Below the pieces are notes generated by a model. It saw nothing but the letters and a program-made list of their open reading frames with translations, had not been told where the DNA came from and made no database searches. Positions 1,012 to 31,715 of a stretch of 32,000 nt of DNA are shown here, piece after piece; positions within the stretch are counted from its first letter, which is position 1, and every line of letters starts with the position of its first letter. The position numbers and the translations under genes were made by a program. The stretch is taken from NCBI GenBank assembly GCA_964638435.1, contig CAZXAY010000003.1, positions 8,431 through 40,430 on the forward strand. The letters are read 5' to 3'. Source of the stretch: an uncultured Candidatus Saccharibacteria bacterium. GTDB lineage: Bacteria > Patescibacteriota > UBA1384 > JAMDBS01 > CAZXAY01.

Positions 1012-1159
1012 ATGGATAACGGGGACGGTTCTCTTTTACTCTGGAGTTTTACAATTTTATTAATTACCAAATCCAAATTATTATTATGGATAACGGGGAC
1101 GGTTCTCTTTTACTCTGGAGTTTTACAATTTTATTAATTACCAAATCCAAATTATTATT
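1012..1159. repeat. Perfect 74-bp tandem duplication (2 copies: 1012-1085, 1086-1159)
   Basis: Both copies read atggataacggggacggttctcttttactctggagttttacaattttattaattaccaaatccaaattattatt with no mismatch. Copy 2 overlaps the stop codon of the 1155..1766 CDS. Confidence 0.95.
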
Positions 1160-1766
1160 CTTGCAGACTGAATTTGATTAATTCTTTTTCTATTGTTTTA
1201 TCGTCAACCCTAAATCCTTTTTTCCAGATAATTTCCTCAGATTTATCGATATCTTTAAAATAAGCTAGTTGAGTGCGAAAAATCTTTTCATTGAATTCAT
1301 TACCAAAAATTTCTTGAGCTCTTTTGATTATTTCCTTGATTGAATGATAATCTTTGATAATGAAGTATAAATCCACATAATCTTTCCACTTGGCGCGTTG
1401 TCCTAAAGCGTGTACTTTCATCACTGATAATGTTAGCAAATTCGGCAACTTTATTCCTTCAAAATTTTCTGAAAAATCAATTTTATAGGGGTAATGAAAA
1501 AAAGTAAATCTGACATTGTTGCCAATGAAGGTTAACTCATCTGATTCATTTACTAATATCTCATCAATTGTTATTTTTTTATTTATTTTATTTTTGATAG
1601 ATAAATTTCCAAATTTTTTTAAACTAAATAGATCAAAATCGATAGATTCTCTATGACCAATGTGTAGAGCAATAGCAGTTCCGCCCACTAAACCAAAATC
1701 TTTAGAAAAAGATTTAATAATTGGTAAATTTTTTATTTGATCTTGAGTTAATATTTCTTTATGCAT
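1155..1766 (-). CDS. AbiEii-like nucleotidyltransferase (putative TA toxin family)
   Basis: LVGGTAIALHIGHRESIDFDLF matches the GG..(x)n..D.D nucleotidyltransferase signature of the AbiEii/DUF1814-type family. Its start overlaps the stop of the upstream 94-aa gene by one nucleotide. Confidence 0.55.
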   Translation of the reverse strand: MHKEILTQDQIKNLPIIKSFSKDFGLVGGTAIALHIGHRESIDFDLFSLKKFGNLSIKNKINKKITIDEILVNESDELTFIGNNVRFTFFHYPYKIDFSENFEGIKLPNLLTLSVMKVHALGQRAKWKDYVDLYFIIKDYHSIKEIIKRAQEIFGNEFNEKIFRTQLAYFKDIDKSEEIIWKKGFRVDDKTIEKELIKFSLQE

Positions 1767-3358: not shown

Positions 3359-3577
3359 TTAATGTTGATGTTGGCAGGATTTAATCATACCGAGTATTGT
3401 TTTTGCTTCTGACTCATCAATTTTATTAATCGCCAAATCTCCATGACAAAGTAGCCAGTCGCCCTTTTTGGCTTTTGGCACAAGAGAAATATCAACTTCC
3501 TTATCACCATCAACAATAACTTTTAGTTTTTCGTTTTTAGTTTTTAGTTTTATTTGTACTGGTGTTGCTAGACACAT
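3359..3577 (-). CDS. hypC: HypC/HybG/HupF-family hydrogenase maturation chaperone-like protein
   Basis: 72 aa. Starts MCLATP (the family begins MCL(A/G)IP with an essential Cys2). GDWLLCHGDLAI..IDE.EA matches the conserved GDxVLVHxGxAI..IDexeA region. Confidence 0.7.
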   Translation of the reverse strand: MCLATPVQIKLKTKNEKLKVIVDGDKEVDISLVPKAKKGDWLLCHGDLAINKIDESEAKTILGMIKSCQHQH

Positions 3578-5524: not shown

Positions 5525-5776
5525 TTAAAATTCAAAATTCCCCCACTTCGCTCAATAGAGCTTCGAGGGACAAGCAATTTTTAATTTTTAATCAATGTTC
5601 AAAACTAAAATCTTAAATCTAAAAGTTAAAATTATAGTATTGAGTTTTTAAATTTAAGTTGTGGCTTTAAGTTTTTCGTTTTTACTTTTAAGTTAATAAC
5701 ATTTGAATTTGATCCGCCTAGGCATCGCTTATGGCGAGACTGGTTAAAAATTACAAATTAAAAATTTGAATTTAAA
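5525..5776. repeat. Composite of three hairpin modules filling the proS-tpiA spacer, two with GC-rich cores (5541-5575, 5714-5743)
   Basis: Module 1: aaaattcaaaattcc + ccccacttcgctcaatagagcttcgagggacaagc + aatttttaattttt. Module 2: aaaactaaaatcttaaatctaaaagtt ... aagtttttcgtttttacttttaagtt. Module 3: tttgaatttgat + ccgcctaggcatcgcttatggcgagactgg + ...aaatttgaattt. Confidence 0.75.
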
Positions 5777-7099
5777 TTACTTCATTAAGTAATTAATTAC
5801 ATCCTTTATCTCCACCAACTTCCCTTTTTCTTGATCACGTTTTTTAATTTCCACTGAATTCTCTTGTAATGTCCTCTCACTTATAATTATTCGCGTTGGG
5901 CAACCAATCAAATCAGCATCAGCGAACTTTTCCCCAGCACTAACTTCCCGATCATCATATAAAACTTCAACCCCAGCATCATATAGCTGATTATATAATT
6001 TCTCTACCTTAGTTTTTGGTTTTGAGTTTTGCTTGTCCCGCGAAGCTTTAGCGGAGTGGGAAGTTTTTAATTCTATCAGATGTACCTGATATGGTGCTAC
6101 CGATTCAGGCCAAACAATCCCTTTGTCATCATAATTACTCTCCACGATCGCACCCATATTTCTGCTAATACCAATCCCATAACAACCCATCAATACTGGC
6201 TGCCTTTGCCCTTTATCATCAATAAAATAATAATTAAATGATTTAGAAAATTTATCGTTGAGCTTAAATATGTTACCAACCTCAATGGTTCTATCAATTT
6301 TTCTGAGCTTTTTATTACCACACTGGGGACATACCCCCTTTTGTTTACCCTGACCTGCCCCGAGTATTCGCGAGGGGGCTGTGTCAAAGGGCTTCTCAGT
6401 AATCTCTTTATTAACTGCAATATTACATTTGTCACATACATGAATTTCATCTTCACCCGCCTCACATGGAACCTGAAATTCATGAGAATATTTACTAAAA
6501 GTTCCACCTGAGGCAAATGTTAAATAAACCTCTTTAAAACCTAACCTTTTAAAGATTTTAACGTAAGCTTTAGTCGCTTTTTCGTAATATTTATCAAGAT
6601 CTTCACTATCTTTATGAAATGAATATAAATCCTTCATCAAAAATTCTCTACCGCGGAGTAAACCTGATTTTGCCCTCACCTCATTACGAAATTTGTTTTG
6701 AATTTGATACACATAACGCGGTAAATCTTTGTAGGAACTAGCAAATTGTTGAACAAGTGGGGTTATAACCTCTTCATGGCTTTGATTTAGCACAAATTCA
6801 CTACCAGAATAAAGTTTTGTTTTAAAAAGTACATCAATATTCTCGCGACCAGTTGTCTTATATTTCTCAATTGATGTCAGAGTTGGCATTAATACCTCTA
6901 CACCACCAATATTATTAATTTCTTCCCGAACGATGTTCTCTATCTTTCTAAGAACCTTTAAACCTAATGGCAAAAAGGTATAAACTCCAGCCATTTCTTT
7001 ATCAATAAACCCACCTTTAATTAAAAGTTGGGCATTTAGTGATGTTTCCTCTTTTGGCACATTTTTTCGGGTTTTAGTAAAAAGCTGACTTAGTTTCAT
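5777..7099 (-). CDS. proS: Prolyl-tRNA synthetase (short form without large editing insertion)
   Basis: Class II motifs FRNEVRAKSGLLRGREFLMKDLYSFH and GCYGIGISR, CxxC...CxxC zinc ribbon, C-terminal anticodon-binding-like domain. Confidence 0.92.
   Translation of the reverse strand: MKLSQLFTKTRKNVPKEETSLNAQLLIKGGFIDKEMAGVYTFLPLGLKVLRKIENIVREEINNIGGVEVLMPTLTSIEKYKTTGRENIDVLFKTKLYSGSEFVLNQSHEEVITPLVQQFASSYKDLPRYVYQIQNKFRNEVRAKSGLLRGREFLMKDLYSFHKDSEDLDKYYEKATKAYVKIFKRLGFKEVYLTFASGGTFSKYSHEFQVPCEAGEDEIHVCDKCNIAVNKEITEKPFDTAPSRILGAGQGKQKGVCPQCGNKKLRKIDRTIEVGNIFKLNDKFSKSFNYYFIDDKGQRQPVLMGCYGIGISRNMGAIVESNYDDKGIVWPESVAPYQVHLIELKTSHSAKASRDKQNSKPKTKVEKLYNQLYDAGVEVLYDDREVSAGEKFADADLIGCPTRIIISERTLQENSVEIKKRDQEKGKLVEIKDVINYLMK
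6011..6068. repeat. In-frame repeat module inside proS (encodes KTSHSAKASRDKQNSKPKT)
   Basis: agtttttggttttgagttttgc + ttgtcccgcgaagctttagcggagtggg + aagttttt. The core is near-identical in pattern to intergenic cores at 5541-5575 (reverse orientation), 22623-22666 and 29970-30020. Confidence 0.75.
6325..6392. repeat. GC-rich in-frame module inside proS (encodes FDTAPSRILGAGQGKQKG)
   Basis: Contains acctgccccgagtattcgcgagggggct. It shares the ACCTGCC(C/T)CG word with gatA 28468-28479 and 28877-28887, and with the reverse complement of 19793-19804. Confidence 0.55.
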
Positions 7100-10776: not shown

Positions 10777-10976
10777 ATAACCTCCTTAAATTATCTAATT
10801 TCTAATTGACCTAATTGCACTAAATAAATTCCAAATCCCAAGCACCAAATTACAAATAATTTTTAAAATATCAATTATCAAATTCTTAATAAGAAAAAAT
10901 ATTTGTCCCAGTTTTAATCATTGTAATTTAAGTAATTATAATTTATTTGAGATCTGTTATTTGAAATTTAATATAA

Positions 10977-11135: not shown

Positions 11136-11146
11136 TAAGGTTATAT

Positions 11147-15089: not shown

Positions 15090-16652
15090 TTAAACTTTTA
15101 ACTTATTATTAAGTATCTCATTTACAACTTGTGGATTAGCTTGCCCCTTACTCTCCTTCATCACGCATCCAACTAAAAATCCTACAATTTGAGTTTGACC
15201 GCCTTTTATTTTAGCCACCACGTCAGGATTTTTACTAATAACTTTCTCCACAATTTTTTCTAACTCACCAATATCAGAAATTTGTTCTAAACCTCTTTCT
15301 TTAATAATCTCTGATGGTTTTTTACCTTTATACAACTCTGACAAAATTTCTTTAGCTACTGATTTAGAAATTTTTCCAACTTTAATAGTACAAATAAGTT
15401 CTACAAACCATGCTGGGTTAATAGAAAAATCTTTGATATCGTTAATTATCCAAACAGCTAATTCAACTTTTGAATCGTCTGATATTAAATTTGCACATTT
15501 ATCAAATAATTTTGATCGCTCGCTATCAGATATAATCAAATTAGCATCAATTTTATTTAAACCAAATTTATTTTGATATCTATCTAAAACCTCTTCAACA
15601 GTCTCTGGTAATTGCTTAATAATCTCATTTATATTAATTATGTTTTTAGTTTTGAATTTTGGATTTTGGATTTGTTTAGAATTTAGAGTTTCGTGCTTAG
15701 AGTTTCCACCAATTACTACTGGTGGAAGATCTGGTTCCGGAAAATACCTATAATCAGCACTAGTTTCTTTAACTCGCATTATATAGGTTTTGTTTTTTAC
15801 CTCATCCCAACCGCGGGTTTCTTGAACAATTTTACCACCATTTTCAATCTCATCAATTTGTCGCTCAAGCTCAAATTCAATCGCCTTTTCAACTGATTTA
15901 AATGAATTAAGATTCTTAACCTCAACTTTAGTCCCAAATTCCTTTTGCCCTATTGGTTTAACGGAAATATTCGCTTCGCAACGCATTTGTCCCTTTTCCA
16001 TATCAGCGTCTGATACATCAAGCTTGCGAAGTCGCAATTGATAGCTCTGGCAAAACAATTTAGCAATTCTACCAGCCTCATCAATTGGCAAAGTTACAGC
16101 GTCCGTGACCAATTCCATTAGCGGTACGCCAGCCCTATTATAATCCATCAATGAGTAATCTACATCTGCCCTACCCTCCGGGTGTTTGCTTGTCCCAGTA
16201 TCTTCTTCCAAATGAATTCTGGTTATTCCAAAAGTTATTAGTTTTTCGTTTTCAGTTTTTAGTTTGAGCAAACCGCCAGTAACAATTGGTAAATCATATT
16301 GAGATATCTGATATCCTTTTGGTAAGTCTGGATAAAAATAGTTTTTTCGATCCCATTTAGTAAAGGTAGCAATATTGTCGGCTTTTTTATTATTTAAATA
16401 TAATCCAGTTTTTATGGTCATTTCAATCGCCTGTTTATTAAGTACAGGCAACATTCCAGGCATTCCCAAACACACCGGACAAATATTCATATTTTGTTCA
16501 GTTGGTTTAGATTCGCGTCTATTCGTGTTTTCATTCGGCATTATTCGTGTTGTGCTATTTGCACACGAGCAGAACATCTTTGACTGTGTTTTAAGCTCTG
16601 CATGAATCTCCAGCCCAATCACCGCTTCATATTTTTGATTGCTTTTTTTCAT
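15090..16652 (-). CDS. gatB: Asp/Glu-tRNA(Asn/Gln) amidotransferase subunit B
   Basis: YEAVIGLEIHAELKT, GMPGMLPVLN, RIHLEEDTG, YRYFPEPDLPP, C-terminal YqeY-like domain. Confidence 0.93.
   Translation of the reverse strand: MKKSNQKYEAVIGLEIHAELKTQSKMFCSCANSTTRIMPNENTNRRESKPTEQNMNICPVCLGMPGMLPVLNKQAIEMTIKTGLYLNNKKADNIATFTKWDRKNYFYPDLPKGYQISQYDLPIVTGGLLKLKTENEKLITFGITRIHLEEDTGTSKHPEGRADVDYSLMDYNRAGVPLMELVTDAVTLPIDEAGRIAKLFCQSYQLRLRKLDVSDADMEKGQMRCEANISVKPIGQKEFGTKVEVKNLNSFKSVEKAIEFELERQIDEIENGGKIVQETRGWDEVKNKTYIMRVKETSADYRYFPEPDLPPVVIGGNSKHETLNSKQIQNPKFKTKNIININEIIKQLPETVEEVLDRYQNKFGLNKIDANLIISDSERSKLFDKCANLISDDSKVELAVWIINDIKDFSINPAWFVELICTIKVGKISKSVAKEILSELYKGKKPSEIIKERGLEQISDIGELEKIVEKVISKNPDVVAKIKGGQTQIVGFLVGCVMKESKGQANPQVVNEILNNKLKV
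15642..15704. repeat. In-frame AT-word module inside gatB (encodes NSKHETLNSKQIQNPKFKTKN)
   Basis: gtttttagttttgaattttggattttggatttgtttagaatttagagtttcgtgcttagagtt. Shares the tttagaatttaga and ggattttggattt words with gatA 28495-28533. Confidence 0.75.
16510..16550. repeat. In-frame 'attcgtgtt' word module inside gatB (encodes TRIMPNENTNRRES)
   Basis: gattcgcgtctattcgtgttttcattcggcattattcgtgt. The same cacgaat/attcgtg words occur in the intergenic hairpins at 7104-7189 and 11913-11993. Confidence 0.6.
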
Positions 16653-16721
16653 AATTCATAATTCCCTGCCCGCCATCGCAAGCTCAGGCGTTGCGGGCGT
16701 GGCTAATTCATAATTCTGAAT
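16653..16721. repeat. GC-core hairpin (16664-16703) flanked by direct aattcataattc words
   Basis: aattcataattc + cctgcccgccatcgcaagctcaggcgttgcgggcgtgg + ctaattcataattc. Core stem gcccgc/gcgggc. The core resembles 5714-5743 (reverse orientation) and 19774-19803. Confidence 0.8.
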
Positions 16722-16775
16722 TTATTTTAACTCCGCATGTATCTCTAATCCAATAACCGCCTCGTATTTTGGCAT
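16722..16775 (-). pseudogene. Ghost 5' end of gatB (17 codons plus stop)
   Basis: ATG CCA AAA TAC GAG GCG GTT ATT GGA TTA GAG ATA CAT GCG GAG TTA AAA TAA gives MPKYEAVIGLEIHAELK*. Across YEAVIGLEIHAELK it differs from the real gatB at 10 of 42 nt, all synonymous. Confidence 0.8.
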
Positions 16776-19399: not shown

Positions 19400-20140
19400 C
19401 TAATACCTCCATTATTTCCCAGCTAAATTCATTTAATTTATGCTTGGAATGTTGTTTTATTAAACCATAATAACTTGACGCATTATTTATGTTTAGCCTG
19501 CTCTTAATCCTTTTTAAATTTCGTTTGTTCAAACTCCTTTTATCTGGGTATATTACAACTCCTAAAAATTTTATTCCGCGCCTAGCTTTAACTATAATGT
19601 CATTTTTTAAATTAATCTTTAAAAGTAAACTATTTTCTATAAACCTAATTGTATTTTCTCGTATTTCTTCTAATTTAGCAAGATCCTTATCTAAAATTAT
19701 AAAATCATCTCCATAGCGCAAATATTAGACTTGTTACGTAATAATTTTTGTAGCGAAAGCTAAGAATTTTGAGCCCGCCTTGACTCGGATCAGGCGAGGC
19801 AGGTGAAAATAATGAAGAGCGAGGAAGTTGTAACAGAGTTACGCTGACGAACTATGAATTATTTTTTAACCAAAATTATTAGTTTGTAGTAAAAATGTTA
19901 TTTCGTAATAAGTCTATTGTTTTATTTTTAATTTATGTTTAATAAACCTGTCTAACTCGTTCAAATAAATATTGGCAAAAATCTAACTAGTTAGGTTGCC
20001 AATTGGCAAGCCCTTTCTATTAAGACCCCCCCCCAATGTCTGTTGAATTGTCATTCTGAGCTTGCGAAGAATCTCTATTATAACCATCAATAACAAAATT
20101 GATTATCTTTTTAACATTTGGACAATCAACTCGTCTAAAA
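19389..20140 (-). pseudogene. DGR-type reverse transcriptase, decayed (5'-truncated, frameshifted, nonsense codon, split by MITE)
   Basis: My minus-strand translation gives ...RRVDCPNVKKIINFVIDGYNRDSSQAQNDNSTDIGGG (frameshift in the G9 run) LNRKGLPIGNLTS*IFANIYLNELDRFIKHKLKIKQ | MITE | YLRYGDDFIILDKDL...FLGVVIYPD...SSYYGLIKQHSKHKL. This covers RT motif 4 with the DGR-typical IGxxxSQ (Q codon is TAG here), motif 5 YGDD, and motifs 6-7. Confidence 0.8.
19726..19914. mobile_element. MITE-like element, copy B (189 bp), inserted in the RT gene, carrying a nested 30-nt GC hairpin (19774-19803)
   Basis: Same termini as copy A, flanked by TAT/TAT (19723-19725, 19915-19917). Deleting 19726-19917 (192 nt) joins ...KHKLKIKQ to YLRYGDDF in frame. 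Confidence 0.85.
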
Positions 20141-20161: not shown

Positions 20162-21283
20162 TTAAAGTCCAATGGTTTGTGGTAACATTACCGAGGAGCG
20201 AACGCCGGAGCCGGAAACGCCGAGATTGTCCCCGCTCAAATCAGCCTGACAGCCGTAGCGATCCCAACGGCAGACCGGCGCCCCACCGGAAACCAAAGAA
20301 GCTATTAAATAACAAGCTCTTGCTTGATCATCTATTTGCTGGTTAGTTTGTTGTAAATGAATAATTGCATAAATTAACCAATCTTGGATAACTAAACCCA
20401 TTTCATTAGCATATTGGGGATCTTCTTGAAGTTTTTTCAGATAATCTATTGGTGATTGGTTGGCTTCCAATTGTTTCCTTGCCTGACCTGAGCTATGTCG
20501 AAGGGTTTTACCCTGACCCTTTGCTGGTAAGTCTGGCAAATTTTCTATCAGTTTAATAGACCAGCCATTAGTGGGCTTAACTTTGTTAAGATACGCTTGA
20601 TATTGTTTATTCTTTTCTTTAGTAATTCCAGTAAGAAGCTCATTAAGGGTAAAACCTTTAAAGCTTGGATCAGTAAAGTCTTTGGGGTAATAGGTCATTT
20701 TAGTATTGCCATCTTGGTCTTCTTGATCACAATTAAGGTATCCATCCCAAATAAAGATTGGATCAAATTTAGTAGAATCATTATCATCTTCTTTGAGTTC
20801 TAAGGACGAGCCATCTGTAGATAGGAGTTTACCTTCTTTATGTTTTTTAATGATTAACTGTTTGTATCTTGATATTAGTATTTCCAGTGGTAGAACCATA
20901 GGAGTAAGAAGCAATTTAGTAAATCCTTGAGATTCTTTAAGTTCAAGTATTTGCAGTTGTTCGGGGGTGATTTGGGAAAGGATTTCTTCATAGGTGGGAA
21001 TAGGATATTCTTTGATTTTAGTACTGTCATGGGGGTCAACTCCAAGAACACCAATATCTTGGCAGTCTAGGAGTATGTCAATAACTCCTGTTTCATTAAG
21101 AGTTTTAACTTGGGACTCCCATTGAACTTTAAGCTGGAGCTTTTCTGAAAGAGCTTCTAGTTTAACTTGATGCTCAGTTTTTTCTGGAGTATCAGTAAGG
21201 CTGAGATCCTTCGCTCCACTAAGACTAACATCGGGTTGAGTTTCTTGAGCTTGATTAAATTGTTGGGGTAATTGTTCGGACAT
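20162..21283 (-). CDS. Candidate DGR variable protein, paralog A (373 aa)
   Basis: Paralogous to 22752..23816 over most of its length. The C-terminal ~40 codons are GC-rich, A-poor and hyperdivergent, ending in a conserved VMLPQT. The stop lies about 20 nt from the RT remnant. Confidence 0.75.
   Translation of the reverse strand: MSEQLPQQFNQAQETQPDVSLSGAKDLSLTDTPEKTEHQVKLEALSEKLQLKVQWESQVKTLNETGVIDILLDCQDIGVLGVDPHDSTKIKEYPIPTYEEILSQITPEQLQILELKESQGFTKLLLTPMVLPLEILISRYKQLIIKKHKEGKLLSTDGSSLELKEDDNDSTKFDPIFIWDGYLNCDQEDQDGNTKMTYYPKDFTDPSFKGFTLNELLTGITKEKNKQYQAYLNKVKPTNGWSIKLIENLPDLPAKGQGKTLRHSSGQARKQLEANQSPIDYLKKLQEDPQYANEMGLVIQDWLIYAIIHLQQTNQQIDDQARACYLIASLVSGGAPVCRWDRYGCQADLSGDNLGVSGSGVRSSVMLPQTIGL
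20193..20311 (-). other. Putative variable region (VR) of paralog A
   Basis: Roughly two-thirds G+C by eye, in a ~30% GC genome. In the 75-nt core, A is the rarest coding-strand base (8/75 by my count). Bounded 3' by a block identical to paralog B (ggtttgtggtaacattacc, 20174-20192). Confidence 0.6.
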
Positions 21284-21287
21284 AATA

Positions 21288-21974
21288 TTATTTTGAATTT
21301 AATTTTAATAAAAATAACAGTTCTGGAATTAGTTGATCTTTTATCCAAATTTTTTGTTTACTATCAACAACCTCACCCAAACTATGTAAAATGTTGATAT
21401 TTGATTTTTTTTCTAACAACTTTATGATTTCTTTTAAATACTCTTTAGTATTTTTACCTGTTCTCAATTTTATAATATTTTCATTAATAGGCCAATTATT
21501 TTTTAAGAAAAAATATACATCAAACAAATCTCGGTTAGCGAGTTTTTTCCTATCCAATACGGCTACCAATTTATTAGCAAAAATACAATCTTTTGTCATA
21601 GTTAAAATTGGCAATCCTAAATAATTTTTTATCTCAAAAGTATTTTCATTAATCAATCTTGTAGAAATTTCTATCTTAATATTATGGGCCTCATTTTTGT
21701 ATGACAATAAAAAGTAAATCGTATTAGCTTTTATTTTTTTGTCCTTTATTTCTCCAATGTCTACTAAAATTCCTAATAACTTTTTGAATACAAAATCGAC
21801 TCTGTCTAACTGCGACAAATTAAAATCTAAGTCGGTAGAAAACCTAGGTAAGTTATAAAAAAGATAACAAGCCGTCCCGCCTTTAAAACCTAAAATTGGC
21901 GCTAGATCTCTATCAGAATAAATAGCATATAATATTTTGCTTAACACTACTTCATGTTCCTTTTTATCAAGCAT
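21288..21974 (-). CDS. AbiEii-family nucleotidyltransferase toxin (pair 1)
   Basis: GFKGGTACYLFYNLPRFSTDLDFN signature. Overlaps the upstream AbiEi-like gene by 8 nt. Paralog of 25203..25913. Confidence 0.8.
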   Translation of the reverse strand: MLDKKEHEVVLSKILYAIYSDRDLAPILGFKGGTACYLFYNLPRFSTDLDFNLSQLDRVDFVFKKLLGILVDIGEIKDKKIKANTIYFLLSYKNEAHNIKIEISTRLINENTFEIKNYLGLPILTMTKDCIFANKLVAVLDRKKLANRDLFDVYFFLKNNWPINENIIKLRTGKNTKEYLKEIIKLLEKKSNINILHSLGEVVDSKQKIWIKDQLIPELLFLLKLNSK

Positions 21975-22554
21975 ATAATTTCCTTAATTTAGCTAATTTT
22001 TTTTCTAAACTCTTATTATCATAAATTTTAACTATTTCACTGCAAATCTGCCAATCAATTTTTGCCAAATTGTCAAAATAAAAATCACCATATAGGTATA
22101 GGGTGTCGAGCAAGGCTCTCTCACAAGACGCAACATCATAATTCTCCTTTCTTACAATTCCACTTGAATTTAATAATACTGAATCTTTGATTTTTTTATA
22201 AACATATTTTTGTTTATCAATTATAATTTCTTTTGATAATTTAGAAATAGAATAAATTGCGCTATCATATTGGAATATTATTCCCGCCCTTAATAAAACA
22301 GTTTGTAAACTAATATATGATGGAATAATTATTTTATTTGCAAGTTCATCTTTTAAATAATTACTATCAATTGCATACAATCCATTTCTTACTCTATTTA
22401 GTTGGCCATTTTTGACTAACCGATATATTTTAGTTTTTAAATAATTTGGCTCAGGTATTTGCCAAATTAAAATTAGGTCTTTAGTACTAAAAACCGTTTT
22501 TTTACTTTTTAACAGTAGTGTTATAGAATTATCTATCATATGTTTGTATCTCAT
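21967..22554 (-). CDS. AbiEi-family antitoxin/transcriptional regulator (pair 1); true start probably the ATG at 22539
   Basis: N-terminal wHTH-like region (TKDLILIWQ...YRLVKNGQLNRVRNGLY), C-terminal ...CERALLDTLYL. Aligns with pair 2 from MIDNS. Confidence 0.75.
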   Translation of the reverse strand: MRYKHMIDNSITLLLKSKKTVFSTKDLILIWQIPEPNYLKTKIYRLVKNGQLNRVRNGLYAIDSNYLKDELANKIIIPSYISLQTVLLRAGIIFQYDSAIYSISKLSKEIIIDKQKYVYKKIKDSVLLNSSGIVRKENYDVASCERALLDTLYLYGDFYFDNLAKIDWQICSEIVKIYDNKSLEKKLAKLRKLYA

Positions 22555-22574: not shown

Positions 22575-22751
22575 ATTTATATTATACATCCTAATAAATA
22601 TACTTGCAACTTTTGGCACCTCGCCCCACTTGTCCCGCGTAGCTTTATGCGAAGTGGGAAGACGGGTTTATTTACCAAATTATTCAATTGAAAAAAAATC
22701 TTTTTTAAAGTTCAAAATTAAAGGTTAAATATTAAAATCAAAATTCAAAGT

Positions 22752-23816
22752 TCAATTGGTTTGTGGTAACATTACCACGGGACGGGAACCGCAGTCCCCG
22801 TACGAGAAGTCAGGGAAGTCTCCGTACAAGTCCGCCCGACGGTTGTCGCGACTCCAATAGTAGCGCAGCACTTTGCCAGCTAGGTATGATCCAGTTAACC
22901 AACAAGCTTTCCCTTTGCTTCGCCAGTCATCTATTTGCTGATTGGTTTCTTGTAATTGGGTAATAGCGTAAATGAGCCAACTTTCTAAGGTTAAACCTTG
23001 TTCGTGGGTATATTGTGGGTCTGTTTGGAGTTGGTTTAGATAATCTATTGGGGTTTGGTTGGCTTCTAATTGTTTTCTTTCATTAAGGGTTTTGCCTTGG
23101 TTTTGGGCAGGTAAATCAGGGTTGTCTTCGATAAATAGTATTTGCCAACCATTAGTGGATTTAAGCTTATCAAGTCTTAGTTGATGTTGGTGATTATTAG
23201 CTTTTCCTGATATTAATTCTGATTTAACAAAGCCTTGGTGATTATCTTTATCAAATTGCTCTGGATAGTAAATTAGTCTGCCATCAGTGTCAGCATTCTT
23301 AATATCATCCCAAACATAGACTGGGTCAAATTTAGTAGAATCATTATCATCTTTTTTGAGTTCTAAAGACGAGCCATCAGTAGCTAAGAGTTTACCTTCT
23401 TGATGTTTTTTAATGAGTAATTGCTTGTATCTATCGATTAAGGTTTCAAGGTGCGCGCCAATTGGAACTAGTAGCATTTTAGTAAAGCCTTGTTCTTGTT
23501 TAGTTTCTAATACTTTAAGTTGTTCTGGGGTAATTTTAGATAAGATTTCTTCATAGGTGGAAATAGGATATTCTTTGATTTTAGTACTGTCATGGGGGTC
23601 AACTCCAATAACACCAATATCTTGGCAGTCTAGGAGTATGTCAATAACTCCTGTTTCATTAAGAGTTTTAACTTGGGACTCCCATTGAACTTTAAGCTGG
23701 AGCTTTTCTGAAAGAGCTTCAAGACGTAGGAGGTGTTCAGATTCTCTTGTTTCGGTGTTAGTCTGAGATAAGTCTGGGTCAGTCGGTATTAAGTTGTAAG
23801 GCAATTGTTCTGGCAT
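22752..23816 (-). CDS. Candidate DGR variable protein, paralog B (354 aa)
   Basis: Same family as 20162..21283, with a GC-rich hypervariable C-terminus ...LRYYWSRDNRRADLYGDFPDFSYGDCGSRPVVMLPQTN. The W...RA...P...G(x)RPVV pattern resembles C-type-lectin/FGE-type DGR VR scaffolds. Confidence 0.75.
   Translation of the reverse strand: MPEQLPYNLIPTDPDLSQTNTETRESEHLLRLEALSEKLQLKVQWESQVKTLNETGVIDILLDCQDIGVIGVDPHDSTKIKEYPISTYEEILSKITPEQLKVLETKQEQGFTKMLLVPIGAHLETLIDRYKQLLIKKHQEGKLLATDGSSLELKKDDNDSTKFDPVYVWDDIKNADTDGRLIYYPEQFDKDNHQGFVKSELISGKANNHQHQLRLDKLKSTNGWQILFIEDNPDLPAQNQGKTLNERKQLEANQTPIDYLNQLQTDPQYTHEQGLTLESWLIYAITQLQETNQQIDDWRSKGKACWLTGSYLAGKVLRYYWSRDNRRADLYGDFPDFSYGDCGSRPVVMLPQTN
22777..22901 (-). 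other. Putative variable region (VR) of paralog B
   Basis: GC-rich, with 14/75 A on the coding strand in the core. Bounded 3' by the identical block ggtttgtggtaacattacc (22758-22776). Confidence 0.6.
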
Positions 23817-25202: not shown

Positions 25203-25913
25203 TTATTTAATAACTGATTGATAATTTTTAAGCATAAAAACTGTTTCTAATTTTAATTTATTTTTAACCCAAATTTTTTCTTTTTCACCTAATAGCTCTC
25301 CAAGTCCTTGTAAAATTTGATTATTTTCTATCTTTTCTATCTCAACAATACAATCAGATAAATAGTTTTTAATGTTTTTCCCTGTTCTATTCTTGATTAT
25401 TTCAAGGTCGATATCCCAACTATTTTTGCTAAAATAATAGATATCATAAACATCACGCGTAACCACTCTACTTCGTTGAGTTAATGCCACTAGTTTACTA
25501 GCAAAAAGATAGTTTTTTTTAGCAATTAACATTGAAATACCAAGATATTCTTTTAATTCATAATGATCTCTAATATTTTTGATAAGTTTTCTAATATTAA
25601 TTTCAATCTTAATATTGTGATCACCATCACCATAGGAAAGAAGAAAAAAAATAGTATATCTTTCTATTCGCTGGTCTTTTACTTCGCCATATTTTTTTAA
25701 AATAGCTAATATCTTTTTAAATAATATCTCGACAATTAATTTATCAGCAGTTAGTAAATCAAAATCTAAATCCACTGAAAATCGTGGTAAATTATAGAAA
25801 AAATAGGCGCAGGTACCGCCCTTAAACCCTAAATACGATGAAATAGACATATCACTATAAATGTCCTTTAATATTTGACCCATAATTAATTGGTGATTTT
25901 CTTTATTTAACAT
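25203..25913 (-). CDS. AbiEii-family nucleotidyltransferase toxin (pair 2)
   Basis: GFKGGTCAYFFYNLPRFSVDLDFD signature. Overlaps the upstream antitoxin gene by 11 nt. Confidence 0.8.
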   Translation of the reverse strand: MLNKENHQLIMGQILKDIYSDMSISSYLGFKGGTCAYFFYNLPRFSVDLDFDLLTADKLIVEILFKKILAILKKYGEVKDQRIERYTIFFLLSYGDGDHNIKIEINIRKLIKNIRDHYELKEYLGISMLIAKKNYLFASKLVALTQRSRVVTRDVYDIYYFSKNSWDIDLEIIKNRTGKNIKNYLSDCIVEIEKIENNQILQGLGELLGEKEKIWVKNKLKLETVFMLKNYQSVIK

Positions 25914-26475
25914 AGTTTTGATGATATTTATTTAAACGTTTAATTAATTGTTGATTATCATAAATCTTAACTAATTCAAAACATTTTTGCCAATCAAGTG
26001 GTTGGAGATTGTCAAAATAGTATTCATCAAAAAGGTAAAGCGTATCCAAAAAAGCTCTTTCTGGTGATGCGATGCTATAGTTACCTTGATTAATTATTCC
26101 ATTTGAATTATATAATAAGTTATTTTTTAGTTTTCTAAAATTAATAGAATGCTTATCAACAATTATCGTTTTTGACCAAGGACCGACAACAAAAATTGTA
26201 TCATAATGTTGAAAGATAATGCCAGCCCCTCGCAAAACAGTTTCGAAACTAATATATGATGGGATATAAATACTTGTGGCTAATTCTTTGGAATCATAAT
26301 TTCTGTCTTTAGCAAATATGCCTCTAGTAAGTCTGATTAACAAACCTTTTTTTATGTAATAGTAAATTTTAGCTTTCAAATTTTTCGAATTAGTTTCTTG
26401 CCAAATTAAAGCTAGATCTTTATTAGTCAAGATTGTTTTGGGATTCTGATAGAGTTTAGCAATTAGATTATCCAT
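25903..26475 (-). CDS. AbiEi-family antitoxin/transcriptional regulator (pair 2)
   Basis: Paralog of 21967..22554 (NKDLALIWQ..., ...PERAFLDTLYL). Confidence 0.75.
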   Translation of the reverse strand: MDNLIAKLYQNPKTILTNKDLALIWQETNSKNLKAKIYYYIKKGLLIRLTRGIFAKDRNYDSKELATSIYIPSYISFETVLRGAGIIFQHYDTIFVVGPWSKTIIVDKHSINFRKLKNNLLYNSNGIINQGNYSIASPERAFLDTLYLFDEYYFDNLQPLDWQKCFELVKIYDNQQLIKRLNKYHQNYVK

Positions 26476-26699: not shown

Positions 26700-27689
26700 C
26701 TATTGTAATAAACTTATTATTATTTTTATCATTACATCTTTTTCTTTTGGATCACTAGTAGCAACCAAAAGTGCCAAAGAAACAAGTGTATTGTTATTTA
26801 TTTTCCTTTGTAAATCTAGGGTATATAAATAATTATTTTCTTTTAAAAAATAAACAAATAGTATAGAGGCGATTCGTTTATTGCCATCTGCAAAGGGGTG
26901 ATCTTTAATGGTTAAATACAACAAATTTGCTGCTTTTTCTTCTATATTATTATATAACTCTTTACTATCAAAAGTTTGATAAATAGAGCTAATTATCGCC
27001 TCGAATTTATGATCATATTCTTGACCAAATAAATCACCTGCTTGACCATCACTTTTTAACTCAGCTTTAATAGCAATAATGGTATTTTTACATTTTTCAT
27101 AGTCTAGCGCAAATTTTGCTTTTGTAGTTTTAGCAATTTTAATTTTACCCTGATCATATTCATCAAGTAATTTTAAAGATTTAGCAAATTCACCTAGTAA
27201 TGATAACAATTCTCGTGATTTATCTTGCAAAACATAGTTATCTGCCTTTTTTTCGATAAAAGTAATCGTTTCTTTGAGTAAAACTAATTTATCTTTATAC
27301 TCTAACATTTTTTTGTCATTAACAGCATAACCACTTAATAAATAATTTTTTAGAGTATTGGTTGCCCAAATTCTAAACTGGGTTGCTCTTTTTGAGTTAA
27401 CGCGATAACCAACAGATATAATAGCATCTAGATTATATAATCTAGTTTTATATTTTTGTCCAGTAACACCCACATGTTCCAAAATGGAACATGTGCTTTG
27501 CTCAGAAAGTTCATTCGACTTATAAACATTAGCTAAATGTTTAGTAATAGCAGGTCTCTGAATATCGAATAATTGAGCAATTTGATCTTGACCTAACCAA
27601 ACCGTTTCCTTATCAACTTTAACATCAATCTGTGCATTCCCAGATTCATCTTTATATATTATTATTTTGTTTGTTTCTTCTTTTTTCAT
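26700..27689 (-). CDS. RhuM-like N-terminal domain fused to a Fic/Doc domain
   Basis: N-terminus ...WLGQDQIAQLFDIQRPAITKHLANVY...YNLDAIISVGYRVNSKRATQFRIWAT (RhuM family). C-terminus HPFADGNKRIA matches the Doc-type HxFx(D/E)(A/G)NKR variant of the Fic motif. Confidence 0.8.
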   Translation of the reverse strand: MKKEETNKIIIYKDESGNAQIDVKVDKETVWLGQDQIAQLFDIQRPAITKHLANVYKSNELSEQSTCSILEHVGVTGQKYKTRLYNLDAIISVGYRVNSKRATQFRIWATNTLKNYLLSGYAVNDKKMLEYKDKLVLLKETITFIEKKADNYVLQDKSRELLSLLGEFAKSLKLLDEYDQGKIKIAKTTKAKFALDYEKCKNTIIAIKAELKSDGQAGDLFGQEYDHKFEAIISSIYQTFDSKELYNNIEEKAANLLYLTIKDHPFADGNKRIASILFVYFLKENNYLYTLDLQRKINNNTLVSLALLVATSDPKEKDVMIKIIISLLQ

Positions 27690-27857: not shown

Positions 27858-28310
27858 TTATATCGCTCCCAAATTATGTAATCCTAACTTAAAATTATTT
27901 AAAGTTTTCCCTGCTTCGATACTAGTTAATTTATAACCCATTTCATGCGATATTTGATTACGAACTTTATGAGAATTCCAAACTTGCTGATATTTATTGT
28001 AGTCCATTTTCGATTCCAAACTTCTTAACCGATCAGCAAAGCTATCACCCTTTGCCCCAACCTGTTTCATCATACTATCAAAAAATTTATCAGCCTCGAT
28101 TATAGCTTGTTTGGCATGAATTTCGTCTCCACTTTCTAACATTTTTTCGATAATAAGCCAATTAGCTAAATTTTGAACTTTATTTATATTTTCGTTTTTA
28201 GTTTTTAGTTTTAAGATTTTCTTAATCGGCCAACATAATAAAAACCATAAACCTCTCAAGAGACTAAGTACTAATGTTTCTATTAAACTAGTTTGTTTTT
28301 TTCTCTTCAT
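27858..28310 (-). CDS. Membrane-anchored hypothetical protein (150 aa)
   Basis: N-terminal TM segment. Contains the repeat-encoded LKLKTKNENI stretch (28189-28215). No family recognised. Confidence 0.5.
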   Translation of the reverse strand: MKRKKQTSLIETLVLSLLRGLWFLLCWPIKKILKLKTKNENINKVQNLANWLIIEKMLESGDEIHAKQAIIEADKFFDSMMKQVGAKGDSFADRLRSLESKMDYNKYQQVWNSHKVRNQISHEMGYKLTSIEAGKTLNNFKLGLHNLGAI

Positions 28311-28332: not shown

Positions 28333-29949
28333 TTATATGTTACATGATTTCATATGCCAATCTGTTTCTTGTTGATATTGATGCGCAATAGAAAGAATAA
28401 TTTCTTCCCCAAATTGTGGCCCTAAAATTTGCATCCCAATTGGAAGATATGTGATTTGTGATTTGTGACCTGCCTCGCCGACGGACGGGTTTGTGATTTT
28501 TTTAGAATTTAGAACTTCGGATTTTGGATTTTCCACGTATCCACAAGGAATTGAAACTCCCGGGATTCCTGCGATATTGGCTGTAACAGTGTAAATATCC
28601 TCCAAATACATTTGCACTGGGTCTTTAACTTTATCTCCAAATTTAAATGGCATTGTTGGTGTTGTTGGAGTTAAAATCGCATCAACTTTTTCATATGCTT
28701 TTTTAAAATCTTCTATTACCAAAGTTCTAACTTTCATCGCTTTTTTGTAATATTTATCGTAATATCCCGCAGACAAAACATATGTTCCCATCATAATTCG
28801 TCGCTTAGCTTCAGCACCGAAACCCTGAGCTCGATTAAAATTATAATAATCAACCAAAGTTTTTAGTTTTTCATTTCCTGCCTCGAGCGTAGTCGAGAAG
28901 CTAGTTTTTAGTTTGTCTGCCGAAAACCCATATTTAATTCCGTCGTATCGAGCTAAGTTTGACGATACTTCAGCAGGTTGAATAATATAATAACATGCTA
29001 AACCATAATCCGTCATTGGTAAACTAATTTCTACAAATTTTGCTCCTAGTTTTTCTAATACTTTCTTTGCCTCATCAATTTTTCCAGCAATTCTTGAATC
29101 TAATCCTTTAGCAAAATATTCTTTTGGTAATCCAATCTTAAAAGTTTTTAAATTTAAACTGTGGTTTTTAGTTTTAAGCTTTAAATTTTTAGTTATATTT
29201 TCAGCTGAAAATATTTTATTCGGCACCGTTGTCGAATCCAGTGGATCATGTCCTCCAATAATTTCTTGTATTATTGCCACATCTTCAGCACTCCTTGCAA
29301 ATGGCCCAGGACAATCTAGACTAGAAGCCATAGCAATAATCCCAAATCTAGAATTTCGGCCATAAGTTGGTTTTAAACCAGTTATTCCGCAATATGCAGC
29401 TGGCTGACGGATTGAGCCACCAGTGTCCGTTCCAATAGAAGCAAAACCCATATTTACGGCGACGGCAACAGCCGATCCACCAGAAGAACCACCAGGCACC
29501 CTTTCTAAATCCCATGGATTTTTTGTTGGTCCAAAATCAGAATTCTCGGTTGATGATCCATGTGCCCAAGCATCTAAATTATTTTTGCCAATTATTACAG
29601 CGCCAGCATCTTTAAGTCTTTTAACTACAGTTGCATCATATGGCGGTATAAAATCTTCAAGCATTTTACTAGCTGCTGTAGTTTTTATACCATTTGTACA
29701 AAATAAATCTTTAATTGATATCGGCACACCATCTATTTGGCTTCTCTGCTCACCGCTCACCCTTCTCAAATCAGACTTCTGAGCCTGTTCAAGCGCCTCT
29801 TTTTCAGTCAAAGTTATAAATGCATGAACTTTTGGTTCAACTTCTTTAACACGCTCAAAAACCATCTTCGTTAATTCTACCGAAGAAATCTTTTTTTCAT
29901 CTAACATTTGGGAAATTTTTTTAATTGTTTTGTTTAAAATTACATTCAT
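28333..29949 (-). CDS. gatA: Asp/Glu-tRNA(Asn/Gln) amidotransferase subunit A
   Basis: Amidase signature GGSSGGSAVAVA..GTDTGGSIRQPA, KDLFCT..TTAASKML, C-terminal LPIGMQILG. Confidence 0.93.
   Translation of the reverse strand: MNVILNKTIKKISQMLDEKKISSVELTKMVFERVKEVEPKVHAFITLTEKEALEQAQKSDLRRVSGEQRSQIDGVPISIKDLFCTNGIKTTAASKMLEDFIPPYDATVVKRLKDAGAVIIGKNNLDAWAHGSSTENSDFGPTKNPWDLERVPGGSSGGSAVAVAVNMGFASIGTDTGGSIRQPAAYCGITGLKPTYGRNSRFGIIAMASSLDCPGPFARSAEDVAIIQEIIGGHDPLDSTTVPNKIFSAENITKNLKLKTKNHSLNLKTFKIGLPKEYFAKGLDSRIAGKIDEAKKVLEKLGAKFVEISLPMTDYGLACYYIIQPAEVSSNLARYDGIKYGFSADKLKTSFSTTLEAGNEKLKTLVDYYNFNRAQGFGAEAKRRIMMGTYVLSAGYYDKYYKKAMKVRTLVIEDFKKAYEKVDAILTPTTPTMPFKFGDKVKDPVQMYLEDIYTVTANIAGIPGVSIPCGYVENPKSEVLNSKKITNPSVGEAGHKSQITYLPIGMQILGPQFGEEIILSIAHQYQQETDWHMKSCNI
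28450..28533. repeat. In-frame repeat module inside gatA (encodes ENPKSEVLNSKKITNPSVGEAGHKSQIT)
   Basis: gtgatttgtgatttgtg + acctgcctcgccgacggacggg + tttgtgattttt + ttagaatttagaacttcggattttggattttc. The 12-mer acctgcctcgcc is the reverse complement of ggcgaggcaggt in MITE copy B (19793-19804). Confidence 0.8.
28858..28917. repeat. In-frame repeat module inside gatA (encodes KLKTSFSTTLEAGNEKLKT)
   Basis: agtttttagttttt + catttcctgcctcgagcgtagtcgagaagct + agtttttagttt. A GC core lies between direct copies of the AT word. Confidence 0.8.
29141..29195. repeat. In-frame AT-word stretch inside gatA (encodes KNLKLKTKNHSLNLKT)
   Basis: aaagtttttaaatttaaactgtggtttttagttttaagctttaaatttttagtt, the same ttttagtttt word family. 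Confidence 0.55.
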
Positions 29950-30071
29950 ATTATTTAAAAATTATTTATCCCACGAAACTTTCTTGACCAGCGTAGCATT
30001 AGCGAAAGTAGTGAAGTGGGAAAAAATTGAATTTTGAATTTGTTTTGTACCTAAAATACAAAAAAAATATA

Positions 30072-31049
30072 TTATACCTCGCTAATAATATCGAAACCTC
30101 TAAAACTACCTGTTATTGATAACCCAACTACTTTCCCTTTACAAATATTTTTATCCTTAATCTGTTTGGCGGTTTCATTAAGAGTTGCTCCAGATCCTAC
30201 TGCATCATCAATTAGTAATATATTTTTGCATGATGCTATTTTTTCAACAATTATAGTTTTTTGCGCGTTTTCAACCCTATCATTTAACTTTGATAATGTT
30301 TTTTGAGGAACTATTACAGGGGTTTTTAATTTAATTAAAGAAATTGTTTTAGATTTTAGTGCAAGATTTTTTTCTAATTCGCGCATAAATTGAATCTCTC
30401 TTTTAACAGTTGGTGGAATAAACCCAACAGAATCAATTTTGTTTTTTTTGATAATATCATCAATTTTTGGTTTTATACCATGTGATAATTCTCTGATTAA
30501 TTTAATATTCTGACTTTGTTTAGCATACAACAATTGTTGTCCTAATTTTGTTTTCCCAAATCTCTCAATAGAATAAAAATCTAGATAATATAATTGATCT
30601 AGATATACATCTTTAAAAGTATTTTGAATTTTTTTCAAACCATTAATTAAACCATTTTTTTTAAATTGACCATACTTTTTAATAATTTTAATATAATCAT
30701 CAGCCGTCTTATCGACTTTTTGATTATTCTTATTACACCAATAAGCAAACCCATCCCAACCCTGTTTTATTTCGCCTGCAGAAGAAATTAAATAATAATT
30801 ATCATCAATAACTCTTTTAATTTTCATCGAAATCTTGATTTCTAATCCAATTTGTTGTTCATCTGTTAAATAATAATATACTATTGGTGGTAACCCGGAT
30901 TTATAAATAACTTTTTTATTAATGAGGTTTTTAAGCTGCTTAAAGACTGCTCTTTGAGAAATACTAAGATATTCAACCAATTGGTGAGCAGTTGCGTGTT
31001 TATTTTTCTTAATAAATTTTATAATTTTTTTTGATGTGTCGGTTTTCAT
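30072..31049 (-). CDS. ComF-like phosphoribosyltransferase with N-terminal wHTH
   Basis: C-terminal PRPP-binding loop ILLIDDAVGSGATLNE. N-terminal HTH-like ATAHQLVEYLSISQRAVFKQLKNL. Confidence 0.7.
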   Translation of the reverse strand: MKTDTSKKIIKFIKKNKHATAHQLVEYLSISQRAVFKQLKNLINKKVIYKSGLPPIVYYYLTDEQQIGLEIKISMKIKRVIDDNYYLISSAGEIKQGWDGFAYWCNKNNQKVDKTADDYIKIIKKYGQFKKNGLINGLKKIQNTFKDVYLDQLYYLDFYSIERFGKTKLGQQLLYAKQSQNIKLIRELSHGIKPKIDDIIKKNKIDSVGFIPPTVKREIQFMRELEKNLALKSKTISLIKLKTPVIVPQKTLSKLNDRVENAQKTIIVEKIASCKNILLIDDAVGSGATLNETAKQIKDKNICKGKVVGLSITGSFRGFDIISEV

Positions 31050-31162: not shown

Positions 31163-31306
31163 TTAACACATTAGACTTGTTAAACCAAACCTTTCATCAC
31201 AAGGAAAATCTTTACAAATTTTATAAATTAATAAAACTAACTTATGTGCTTCCTGCCAAGTAATCAAATCTGTAAACGATTTTATTCTCTTTTTATTGTT
31301 ATCCAT
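31163..31306 (-). pseudogene. Truncated four-helix-bundle (23S rRNA IVS / Avd-like family) gene, 47 codons
   Basis: My translation: MDNNKKRIKSFTDLITWQEAHKLVLLIYKICKDFPCDERFGLTSLMC*. The family normally continues GLTSQ(I/L)RRAAvSI... for about 70 more residues. Confidence 0.65.
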
Positions 31307-31335: not shown

Positions 31336-31650
31336 CTATTCTAATATCTGTTTAACCTTAATGTATCCATCTTTTTGAGCCGGGGCGTTGGATAAAAGTC
31401 CCTCACGATTAACTTTTTTATCTGCATTAATCTGTGTCTGTCCATCAGCGATATCCTCCCTAAACACATTTTCTAACCCTGTAACTTGTGATGTTTCCTC
31501 AATCCCATCTGTTTTGACTTCTTCTAATTTTTCCACAAACTTCAAAATTCCCGAAAGCTGTTCGGAGTATAATTGTTTTTCTTCATCTGATAATTCAATC
31601 CGAGCAAGTCGTGCAATACTGTCAACTTGATCTTTGGATAATTTACTCAT
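31336..31650 (-). CDS. gatC: Asp/Glu-tRNA(Asn/Gln) amidotransferase subunit C
   Basis: LARIELSDEEKQLYSEQLSGILKFVEKLEEV. I prefer the ATG at 31650 (GGAGA 5 nt upstream) over the track start at 31689. Confidence 0.88.
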   Translation of the reverse strand: MSKLSKDQVDSIARLARIELSDEEKQLYSEQLSGILKFVEKLEEVKTDGIEETSQVTGLENVFREDIADGQTQINADKKVNREGLLSNAPAQKDGYIKVKQILE

Positions 31651-31715
31651 TATTTTCTCCAAAAGCAATACGTGCCCCGTATACGACACTTCTGTTATAA
31701 CAGGACGTAGTCAGT

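Follow-up and report, generated by a model that had tools for sequence, protein, structure and literature searches.

In-frame heptamer arrays and GC-rich cores in gatA of a Patescibacteria genome: probable selfish or slippage-derived DNA carried in essential genes

The gatA locus described here, from a tiny groundwater bacterium, raises the question of why the gene for a conserved enzyme should carry, within its coding sequence, stretches that resemble the repeats lying between the genes around it. The stretch of DNA that was analysed (the window; 32,000 nucleotides of contig CAZXAY010000003.1) has a GC content of ~31%, and nearly all of its genes are on the minus strand. Its gatA open reading frame (ORF; 28333..29949, minus strand) encodes an amidase-signature GatA of 538 aa with three in-frame inserts; gatC (31336-31689) and gatB (15090-16652) are likewise located in the window. 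The gatA product is 100% identical to NCBI protein ACD_58C00213G0010, and its closest named relatives are Candidatus Berkelbacteria, a lineage of CPR (candidate phyla radiation)/Patescibacteria. A preliminary description had proposed that the three stretches are repeat modules that behave like the palindromic elements of Rickettsia. We consider it probable, at roughly three chances in four, that they are selfish or slippage-derived DNA kept in frame, in two separable layers. The inserts are shown below to be lineage-specific and composite, and the GC-rich cores to be discrete indels that recur elsewhere in the genome as well as in remote phyla, where housekeeping genes often carry them in frame.

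The three sites, labelled A to C, encode the following peptides; the ORF and its translations confirmed these positions, the peptides and the protein length as given in the preliminary description.

29141-29195 (site A): encodes KNLKLKTKNHSLNLKT
28858-28917 (site B): encodes KLKT-SFSTTLEAGNE-KLKT
28450-28533 (site C): encodes ENPKSEVLNSKKITNPSVGEAGHKSQIT

An alignment with the solved GatA structures 4wj3, 3h0l and 2df4 (Pseudomonas, Aquifex and Staphylococcus) breaks at three places only, with ~10 extra residues at site A (around aa 249-269), 15 at site B (aa 349-363) and 27 at site C (aa 474-500), and the extra residues of this GatA thus coincide with the modules, as had been claimed. The same sites are length hot spots in a 29-CPR GatA alignment and in a survey of 120 homologues. 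In the latter, the base lengths, counted between anchors and including some flanking conserved residues, are 19-21 (A), 11 (B) and 4 (C) residues, with expansions of up to +18, +34 and +58, respectively. An insert is absent at one site at least in many close relatives, and the more distant CPR GatA have no inserts altogether; the sequence and length of the inserts are hypervariable even among GatA of 64-77% identity, and the insert peptides follow the repeat words of each genome and not the site. The hypervariable loop lengths and the insert-free relatives and distant CPR indicate that the inserts are lineage-specific. The comparison with orthologues that had been proposed as a check therefore came out in favour of the preliminary description, distant CPR and solved GatA being at base length, and the sequence comparisons support the view that all three stretches of gatA are insertions specific to the lineage, in frame and at loops that tolerate indels. 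Agreement was also obtained for the proposed check on a structural model: in an AlphaFold2 model of GatA (mean predicted local distance difference test (pLDDT) score 72.6; TM 0.84 to solved GatA), the inserts are predicted to lie between secondary-structure elements, with pLDDT <50 at residues 256-264, 350-359 and 478-497, and site C is modelled as a beta-hairpin loop.

At the level of DNA, the inserts are composed of the following parts; site A has a close copy in an intergenic region.

28446..28468, plus strand: site C left array, GATTTGT/GTGATTT, 3.3 copies
28469..28489, plus strand: site C 21-nt GC core CCTGCCTCGCCGACGGACGGG
28490..28532, plus strand: site C right heptamer run, TTTGTGA, TTTAGAA twice, GGATTTT twice
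28858..28877, plus strand: site B left array AGTTTTTAGTTTTTCATTTC, common to the gatA orthologue L110 and the IleRS-like gene of L119
28878..28901, plus strand: site B 24-nt GC core CTGCCTCGAGCGTAGTCGAGAAGC, a discrete indel relative to L110 and a copy of a dispersed element
28902..28914, plus strand: site B right array TAGTTTTTAGTTT
29143..29195, plus strand: site A module, AT-rich, 53 nt and lacking a GC core
5643..5695, plus strand: intergenic copy of the site A module

The first layer consists of tandem heptamers. Among short tandem arrays in the window, a period of 7 is the most frequent (Tandem Repeats Finder), and 23 exact 7-mer tandem duplications were counted against 4.6 expected; in relatives, the counts are 11, 7 and 7 against 2.9, 1.3 and 2.5 expected (~3-5-fold excess). 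The word AGTTTTTAGTTT (with at most one mismatch) occurs 19 times, with 1.56 occurrences expected; when GC content is controlled, word sharing is enriched just 1.3-3-fold. According to Mrazek 2007, as cited in PMC4679880, heptamers are the commonest long simple-sequence repeat (SSR) in bacteria. The GatA inserts of three relatives, when read as DNA, are also tandem heptamer arrays in frame: one relative has (CCATCAG)x4, translated as HQPSAIS, at sites A and C alike, and another has (ATTTCCA)x4 and (AATCTCA)x4 at site B; some of these arrays enclose a 14-nt palindrome, CCGCCAGCTGGCGG, which one genome has at site A and another at site B. Across eight sets of syntenic orthologues, indels of at least 6 aa are concentrated in gatA and gatB, and their lag-7 autocorrelation (~0.3-1.0) is mostly the highest among the lags tested.

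Heptamer arrays are found in frame in further genes of the window:

15650..15691, plus strand: in-frame 22-aa heptamer insert of gatB (aa 319-340), lag-7 autocorrelation 0.66
16233..16265, plus strand: AGTTTTT array of gatB (KLKTENEKL), at a hairpin turn
28189..28220, plus strand: AGTTTTT/CGTTTTT array (LKLKTKNENI) in a 150-aa ORF, 27858..28310
3521..3551, plus strand: AGTTTTT/CGTTTTT array (KLKTKNEKLK) in the HypC ORF, 3359..3577

The heptamers GGATTTT and TTTAGAA are common to the gatB insert at 15650-15691 and gatA site C. The gatB array at 16233-16265 represents no net insertion relative to Aquifex GatB, and the GatB of relative L001 has a different heptamer insert at this place. Several AGTTTTT arrays that had been taken as intergenic are genic, e.g. 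3521-3551 in the HypC ORF. The more general claim that the gatA modules are built from dispersed repeat words is borne out for site A (81% identity to the intergenic 5643-5695 over 53 nt; 0/300 shuffles) and, through copies outside the window, for site B; it is weakest for site C, for which the best match, a marginal one, is in gatB.

The second layer consists of GC-rich cores, of 21 and 24 nt in gatA and 30-38 nt elsewhere in the window, in whole modules of 53-87 nt; at least ten cores were counted in the 32 kb. At site B, the GatA orthologue of L110 (P0003; 71% identity) reads KLKT-R-NEKLKT and has the same AGTTTTT array, with exactly the 24-nt CTGCCTCGAGCGTAGTCGAGAAGC absent. Two direct copies of AGTTTTTAGTTT do flank the site B core, as had been described, but they are the older array and not a target-site duplication, because L110 has the array without the core. 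At site C, in silico excision of the 21-nt core yields a perfect (GTGATTT)x4, and the heptamer phase is restored on core removal also at site B, in proS and at 16665. The first 11 nt of the site C core match the 30-nt core at 19774-19803; the two cores have CCTGCCTCGCC and a GGNCGGG-type end in common, and an element in L022 is similar to the site C core. Site C has the weakest tie to the repeats and looks, by its sequence, like a shortened and decayed copy. The common 5' end of the cores, CCTGCCYCG, occurs four times in the window, with 0.03 occurrences expected. The other cores are located as follows:

6011..6075, plus strand: in-frame module of proS, AGTTTTK heptamers and a 30-nt family-2 core at 6032-6061 (peptide LKTSHSAKASRDKQNSKPKT)
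16648..16725, plus strand: intergenic TTCATAA array broken by a 38-nt hairpin core at 16665-16702
19774..19803, minus strand: 30-nt hairpin core CCTGCCTCGCCTGATCCGAGTCAAGGCGGG, inside a ~180-nt palindromic element
22629..22659, plus strand: intergenic family-2 core
5540..5574, minus strand: intergenic family-2 core, with AAAATTC and TAATTTT heptamers as flanks
5714..5743, minus strand: intergenic family-1-like core, CCAGTCTCGCC...AGGCGG
29983..30009, plus strand: family-2-like core in a hairpin (29970-30020) just upstream of gatA

The family-2 core of proS coincides with a 10-aa insert relative to solved ProRS. A pair of filled and empty sites is also present within the window: the paralogous ~180-nt palindromic elements at 10976-11153 (empty) and 19725-19946 (filled) are ~92% identical and differ by the precise 30-nt core, with an ambiguity of at most 1 nt.

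Two further observations concern these loci. The ~180-nt elements have ~47-nt inverted arms (TTAGACTTGTTACGTAATAA...), contain GCGAAAGC, and look like a MITE (miniature inverted-repeat transposable element) or a long hairpin; partial similarity is also present near 31170-31200, and there is no Rfam match. In proS, a GC-rich stretch at 6302-6406 (aa 232-266), with CCTGCCCCGAGTATTCGCGAGGGGGC (peptide PSRILGAG) beside a CxxC motif, is located at the place of the bacterial ProRS editing domain and may be a further in-frame core.

Outside the window, 10 metagenome contigs with GC contents of 0.32-0.65 contain the central 21 nt of the site B core unchanged (metagenome scan). Contig AMFJ01025133.1, of the same ACD project, carries the whole 54-nt site B module at 92.6% identity and in frame, inside the anticodon-binding domain (Pfam) of a class I IleRS-like synthetase; gatA and this IleRS-like gene share both flanks of the module, and the contig also carries other repeats of the window type. 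A 64%-GC contig has two tandem core copies in frame in SucA (2-oxoglutarate dehydrogenase E1). On these sequence matches, site B is firmly assigned as a copy of a dispersed element. Neither the site B core nor the family-2 core had a match in 2.9 million viral contigs, and a phage vector is therefore not supported.

The family-2 core, CTTGTCCCGCGAAGCTTTAGCGGAGTGGGA, is a sister of the gatA cores. A scan of the GTDB species genomes with its 5' two-thirds, i.e. with the 3' stem half outside the search pattern, gave 103 loci, with the window's own genome not among the returns; about half of the loci are in Patescibacteria, and their flanks are unrelated; the other loci are labelled Gammaproteobacteria, Planctomycetota, Bacteroidota, Verrucomicrobiota, Acidobacteriota, Bradyrhizobium and Rickettsiales. 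Variant copies are present in Bradyrhizobium isolate genomes, but the pairing of their 3' stems is unlike that of the consensus. A 6-bp stem is formed with the unsearched 3' end, 95.2% of cells being paired, and the stem covaries (50 double-change cells, compared with 15.8 in shuffles; 0/500), with no signal when partners are slid; the folding is strand-specific, since the pair 12-29 is mostly G.U. Copies occur in tandem, or one copy lies within the loop of another of the same or a related kind (nested in L029, L035, L043, L054, L058, L076, L082, L094 and L100).

Nearly half of the family-2 copies (49 of 104) are located where a frame runs for at least 120 aa without a stop, and four of the six reading frames of the element are open. 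For ten copies the host protein was identified by Pfam, and most of these copies are inside the matched domains: IleRS, PolA, PyrG (CTP synthase), a MurD-like ligase, MiaA, KsgA and Tgt carry the element inside a domain, and Acs and DprA between domains. The same position is occupied in different species for DprA (L105/L109), MiaA (L015/L106) and KsgA (L052/L070), and the MiaA of L025 has the element at another position than L015/L106; the shared positions point to either old retained insertions or recurrent hot spots. The phenomenon is much wider than gatA or this genome, and unexpectedly so, with several essential genes affected within 32 kb and many phyla represented.

Three observations on individual family-2 loci are added. 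Locus L010 was considered as a proS locus, as its flanks resemble proS, and was rejected, the gene being a metal-dependent hydrolase-like ORF (JBGSIU010000023.1, ~110-940) in which the family-2 core is read in a second frame (PTSLKLRGTS). The same ORF contains another type of mini-element (VIPA...KAGIQ), with a further insertion nested inside. Locus L074 (2637-6299) encodes a 1221-aa IleRS with a His_Phos_1 domain (Pfam, aa 533-686) within the catalytic domain and a 30-nt element at aa 777.

All examined inserts, here and in relatives, are a multiple of 3 nt in length and have no stop codons. An uninterrupted (AAAAACT)n array would reach TAA within seven codons in every frame, and within ORFs the AGTTTTT arrays are interrupted at precisely the point at which TAA would result from a third perfect copy; the break is seen as KLKTKN-E/H in gatA, the HypC gene and ORF 27858, and as KLKTENEK in gatB. 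Heptamers that are stop-free reach up to 4.4 perfect copies within ORFs. The stop-avoiding breaks match selection on a translated product and speak, as indirect evidence, against splicing or bypassing. Predicted insert-spanning tryptic peptides of GatA include ITNPSVGEAGHK and TSFSTTLEAGNEK. In scans of the whole window with Rfam gathering and E-value thresholds, no family was found at any module and there was no intron or ribozyme match; a search for tRNA and tmRNA genes in the window found none.

For the origin of the inserts, the following sequence of events is proposed. Tandem heptamer arrays would arise at three indel-tolerant loops of GatA, with unit and length varying by species, and would grow or change in length by replication slippage. 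Tiny GC-rich elements of a hairpin type would then be placed precisely in the arrays, without target duplication; their spread within the genome may be helped by gene conversion between similar heptamer arrays. As a guess, the movement of the cores might depend on a single-strand, hairpin-dependent process acting in trans: GCGAAGC and GCGTAGC are unusually stable DNA mini-hairpins, and these motifs, together with the strand-specific G.T pairs, suggest a single-strand hairpin intermediate. Each insert would be transcribed and translated within GatA as a disordered surface loop, and the survivors would be the versions that are stop-free with a length that is a multiple of 3 nt. The inserts would be neutral or slightly deleterious and not adaptive, and the three sites would recur through tolerance of insertion and not through targeting.

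We tentatively extend this proposal, at clearly less than even odds, to a previously unrecognised superfamily of single-hairpin mini-elements of 21-38 nt across phyla, to which the gatA cores would belong. Its members would be inserted precisely and without target duplication into arrays, their own loops and small elements, would have a covarying, strand-specific stem, would be carried routinely in frame within essential genes (GatA, GatB, ProRS, IleRS, PolA, PyrG, MiaA, KsgA, Tgt and SucA), and would be enriched in CPR/Patescibacteria. Their common design may be C(C/T)TG-NCC-NN-C-G(A/T)AGC...GCGAAG-N'N'-GGN, with the very stable mini-hairpin motif GCGNAGC.

A number of results weigh against the interpretation as selfish or slippage-derived DNA. 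When only the window is considered, site B has no significant best match (56/300 shuffles) and site C has a marginal one (2/300), which is to gatB instead of an intergenic hairpin; an alternative null, for which segments of real ORFs were used, suffered from contamination by paralogues. Site B is convincing as a repeat copy only because of the sequences outside the window, and the family link of site C rests on the 11-mer and similar ends. The gatA cores are poor hairpins as single-stranded DNA (site B, a 5-bp stem, z = -1.0; site C, z = +0.3) and may be decayed copies, whereas the intergenic cores fold significantly as DNA (z = -1.9 to -2.7; 16665-16702, z = -2.7); because of this weak folding, 'palindromic element' is an unfit description of the gatA copies. 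In-phase heptamer flanks of the family-2 core are rare elsewhere (4%, compared with 0.5% in controls), and the association of arrays with cores is therefore lineage-specific. Formally, an 'empty' site could also result from a precise deletion. In this model, which is based on a shallow alignment, low pLDDT is not confined to the inserts; some conserved segments score low as well, and the predicted disorder is therefore supportive evidence only. Pfam searches detected no transposase or reverse transcriptase in the scanned ORFs of the window (25903-26475, 26700-27689 and 31336-31689 being outside the scan). Translation of the gatA inserts is inferred from the reading frame.

It is unlikely that the inserts are pure low-complexity slippage products of an AT-rich genome, comparable with the loops of Plasmodium proteins and with cores and shared words as coincidence. 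The bulk of the inserts indeed consists of heptamer arrays, a class reported as the commonest among long bacterial SSRs, and both the insignificant window-only match of site B and the modest GC-controlled word sharing count in favour of this view; against it stand the discrete 24-nt GC indel relative to L110, the identical 21-mer in unrelated contigs of 32-65% GC, the excess of CCTGCCYCG, and the 30-nt core indel that separates the paralogous elements together with the covarying stem of the sister family, and for sites B and C this explanation is largely refuted. That the inserts are adaptive extensions of GatCAB, for contacts with tRNA, a non-discriminating aminoacyl-tRNA synthetase or a host, and merely built from repeat DNA, is improbable: hypervariability at 64-77% identity, the many insert-free close relatives, a peptide content that tracks the repeat words of each genome and the predicted disorder all argue against such a function, although the same three sites have been expanded repeatedly in Berkelbacteria and some family-2 positions are common to different species (the DprA, MiaA and KsgA pairs).

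Removal of the modules before the mature protein is formed, by RNA splicing, translational bypassing or protein splicing, appears very improbable. Mitochondrial byp elements derive from GC clusters, which the cores resemble in their AT-rich genome, and intervening sequences in rRNA are a known trait of CPR genomes; the inserts are nevertheless all multiples of 3 nt and stop-free, with arrays interrupted precisely at would-be stops, they are far too small for inteins, and Rfam gave no intron or ribozyme match. We give hardly any credence to an artefact of assembly or binning, i.e. a chimeric repeat collapse, even though the sequence comes from a metagenome and repeats are easily misassembled. 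The three gatA inserts recur without any difference in a separate NCBI record, ACD_58C00213G0010, and are therefore not an artefact of this assembly; analogous inserts are present in independent JGI, ENA and Logan assemblies, and family-2 variants (with 3' stems that pair unlike the consensus) are present in Bradyrhizobium isolates.

Among known repeat systems, the best match in kind appears to be the small dispersed repeats (SDRs) of cyanobacteria. These were reportedly described by Elhai and co-workers in 2008 as embedded in heptamer arrays of short tandemly repeated repetitive (STRR) sequences. As in SDRs, the units are of 21-30 nt, dispersed, and located in tandem heptamers and also within a mini-transposon-like element; some lie in the loop of another copy of themselves, target duplication is absent, and for family 2 a conserved hairpin is supported by compensatory changes. 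SDRs are reported as confined to Nostocaceae (PMC5861425), whereas the elements described here are found in CPR and many phyla with identical 21-30-mers. They also differ from SDRs in that they are frequently in frame in housekeeping ORFs.

The parallel with RPEs that the preliminary description had drawn is a fair analogy for the behaviour of selfish repeats in frame in essential genes, at positions compatible with the fold, and also in intergenic regions. It does not extend to membership: RPEs are reported (Ogata et al. 2000) to be palindromes of ~100-150 bp restricted to Rickettsia, whereas the modules described here are cores of 21-38 nt with heptamer arrays, and the gatA cores do not form a long stable palindrome. 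Repetitive extragenic palindromic (REP) sequences and REPINs are extragenic, highly repeated, GC-rich imperfect palindromes of 20-40 nt, mobilised by REP-associated tyrosine transposases (RAYTs) and with an unpaired GTAG/CGTC tag at the end (PMC3116915, PMC3733652). The cores resemble them in being small and GC-rich, in some having GTAG, and in the good folding of the intergenic copies; they differ in that GTAG/GAAG is internal (loop or internal loop), A/T-variable and not an end tag, and in that copies are in frame in gatA, proS, the IleRS-like gene, SucA and others. No Y1 transposase was detected among the Pfam-scanned ORFs of the window (the three regions named above lying outside that scan). 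Likewise, the cores are <40 nt and their indels are precise, with an ambiguity of at most 1-2 nt and no duplication, unlike MITEs with their terminal inverted repeats, target-site duplication and length of 50-500 bp.

The TAACTGA arrays of Beggiatoaceae and cyanobacteria consist of one heptamer, mostly upstream of starts and at protein termini; they are mostly intergenic and occasionally in ORFs, where stop codons limit their orientations (PMC4679880). The window shares with such heptanucleotide SSRs the head-to-tail 7-nt copies beyond chance, and differs in having many heptamers, located inside conserved domains of essential enzymes and with inserted GC cores. A last comparison is with the GC clusters of yeast mitochondria. 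These are short, GC-rich, palindromic mobile elements of a very AT-rich genome and are sometimes in frame in coding sequence; they differ in belonging to an organelle, in their sequence families and in the absence of a heptamer context. Our literature searches returned no paper with the core sequence and none of relevance on CPR repeats or in-frame insertions, in agreement with the preliminary remark that the phenomenon is undescribed for such genomes.

Very small selfish DNA is tolerated, and apparently translated, within core proteins. In the core proteins of CPR, repeat-derived filler may account for tens of residues; it would inflate protein lengths, seed spurious 'hypothetical' ORFs and possibly distort marker-gene phylogenies. 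Streamlined CPR genomes of <1 Mb still hold selfish DNA of the smallest scale in essential translation genes. The near-identical elements of 21-30 nt in organisms of 32-65% GC, together with their carriage in essential genes, point to an unrecognised mechanism of transfer or propagation, and the empty and filled sites are concrete substrates for studying the movement of elements too small to encode anything. If the proposed superfamily is real, its members would rank with the smallest known mobile elements.

Other features of the window and of related contigs were noted. Two paralogous ORFs (20162-21283 and 22752-23816; no Pfam match) have anomalously GC-rich 3' ends of 85-111 nt (20188-20298 and 22772-22856), both preceded by the same ggtttgtggtaaca, for which diversification or an origin from repeats is possible; ORF 20162-21283 adjoins an AbiEii/AbiEi pair. 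Three AbiEii toxin genes (1155-2050, 21288-22554 and 25203-26475) are present in 32 kb of a very small genome, at least one of them with a recognisable AbiEi partner, and a perfect 74-nt tandem duplication (1011-1158) is located just downstream of AbiEii ORF 1155..1766, with an overlap of a few bases at the 3' end. Directly upstream of the GAPDH gene, a 10-nt-periodic palindromic GTTAATA/TTATTAAC array (3587-3678), with a similar array in contig L111, looks like an operator or iteron. At 20022-20080, a C9 run is followed by GTCATTCTGAGCTTGCGAAGAATCTC, and this resembles another type of hairpin mini-element, which we take to be widespread. Between gatC and gatA, relatives L001 (9553-9966) and L110 (9594-9968) have a 23S_rRNA_IVP/bAvd-like gene; at this place the window has an HTH-PRTase ORF (30072-31049), which in L001 and L005 is located upstream of gatC on the other strand, i.e. 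a local rearrangement.

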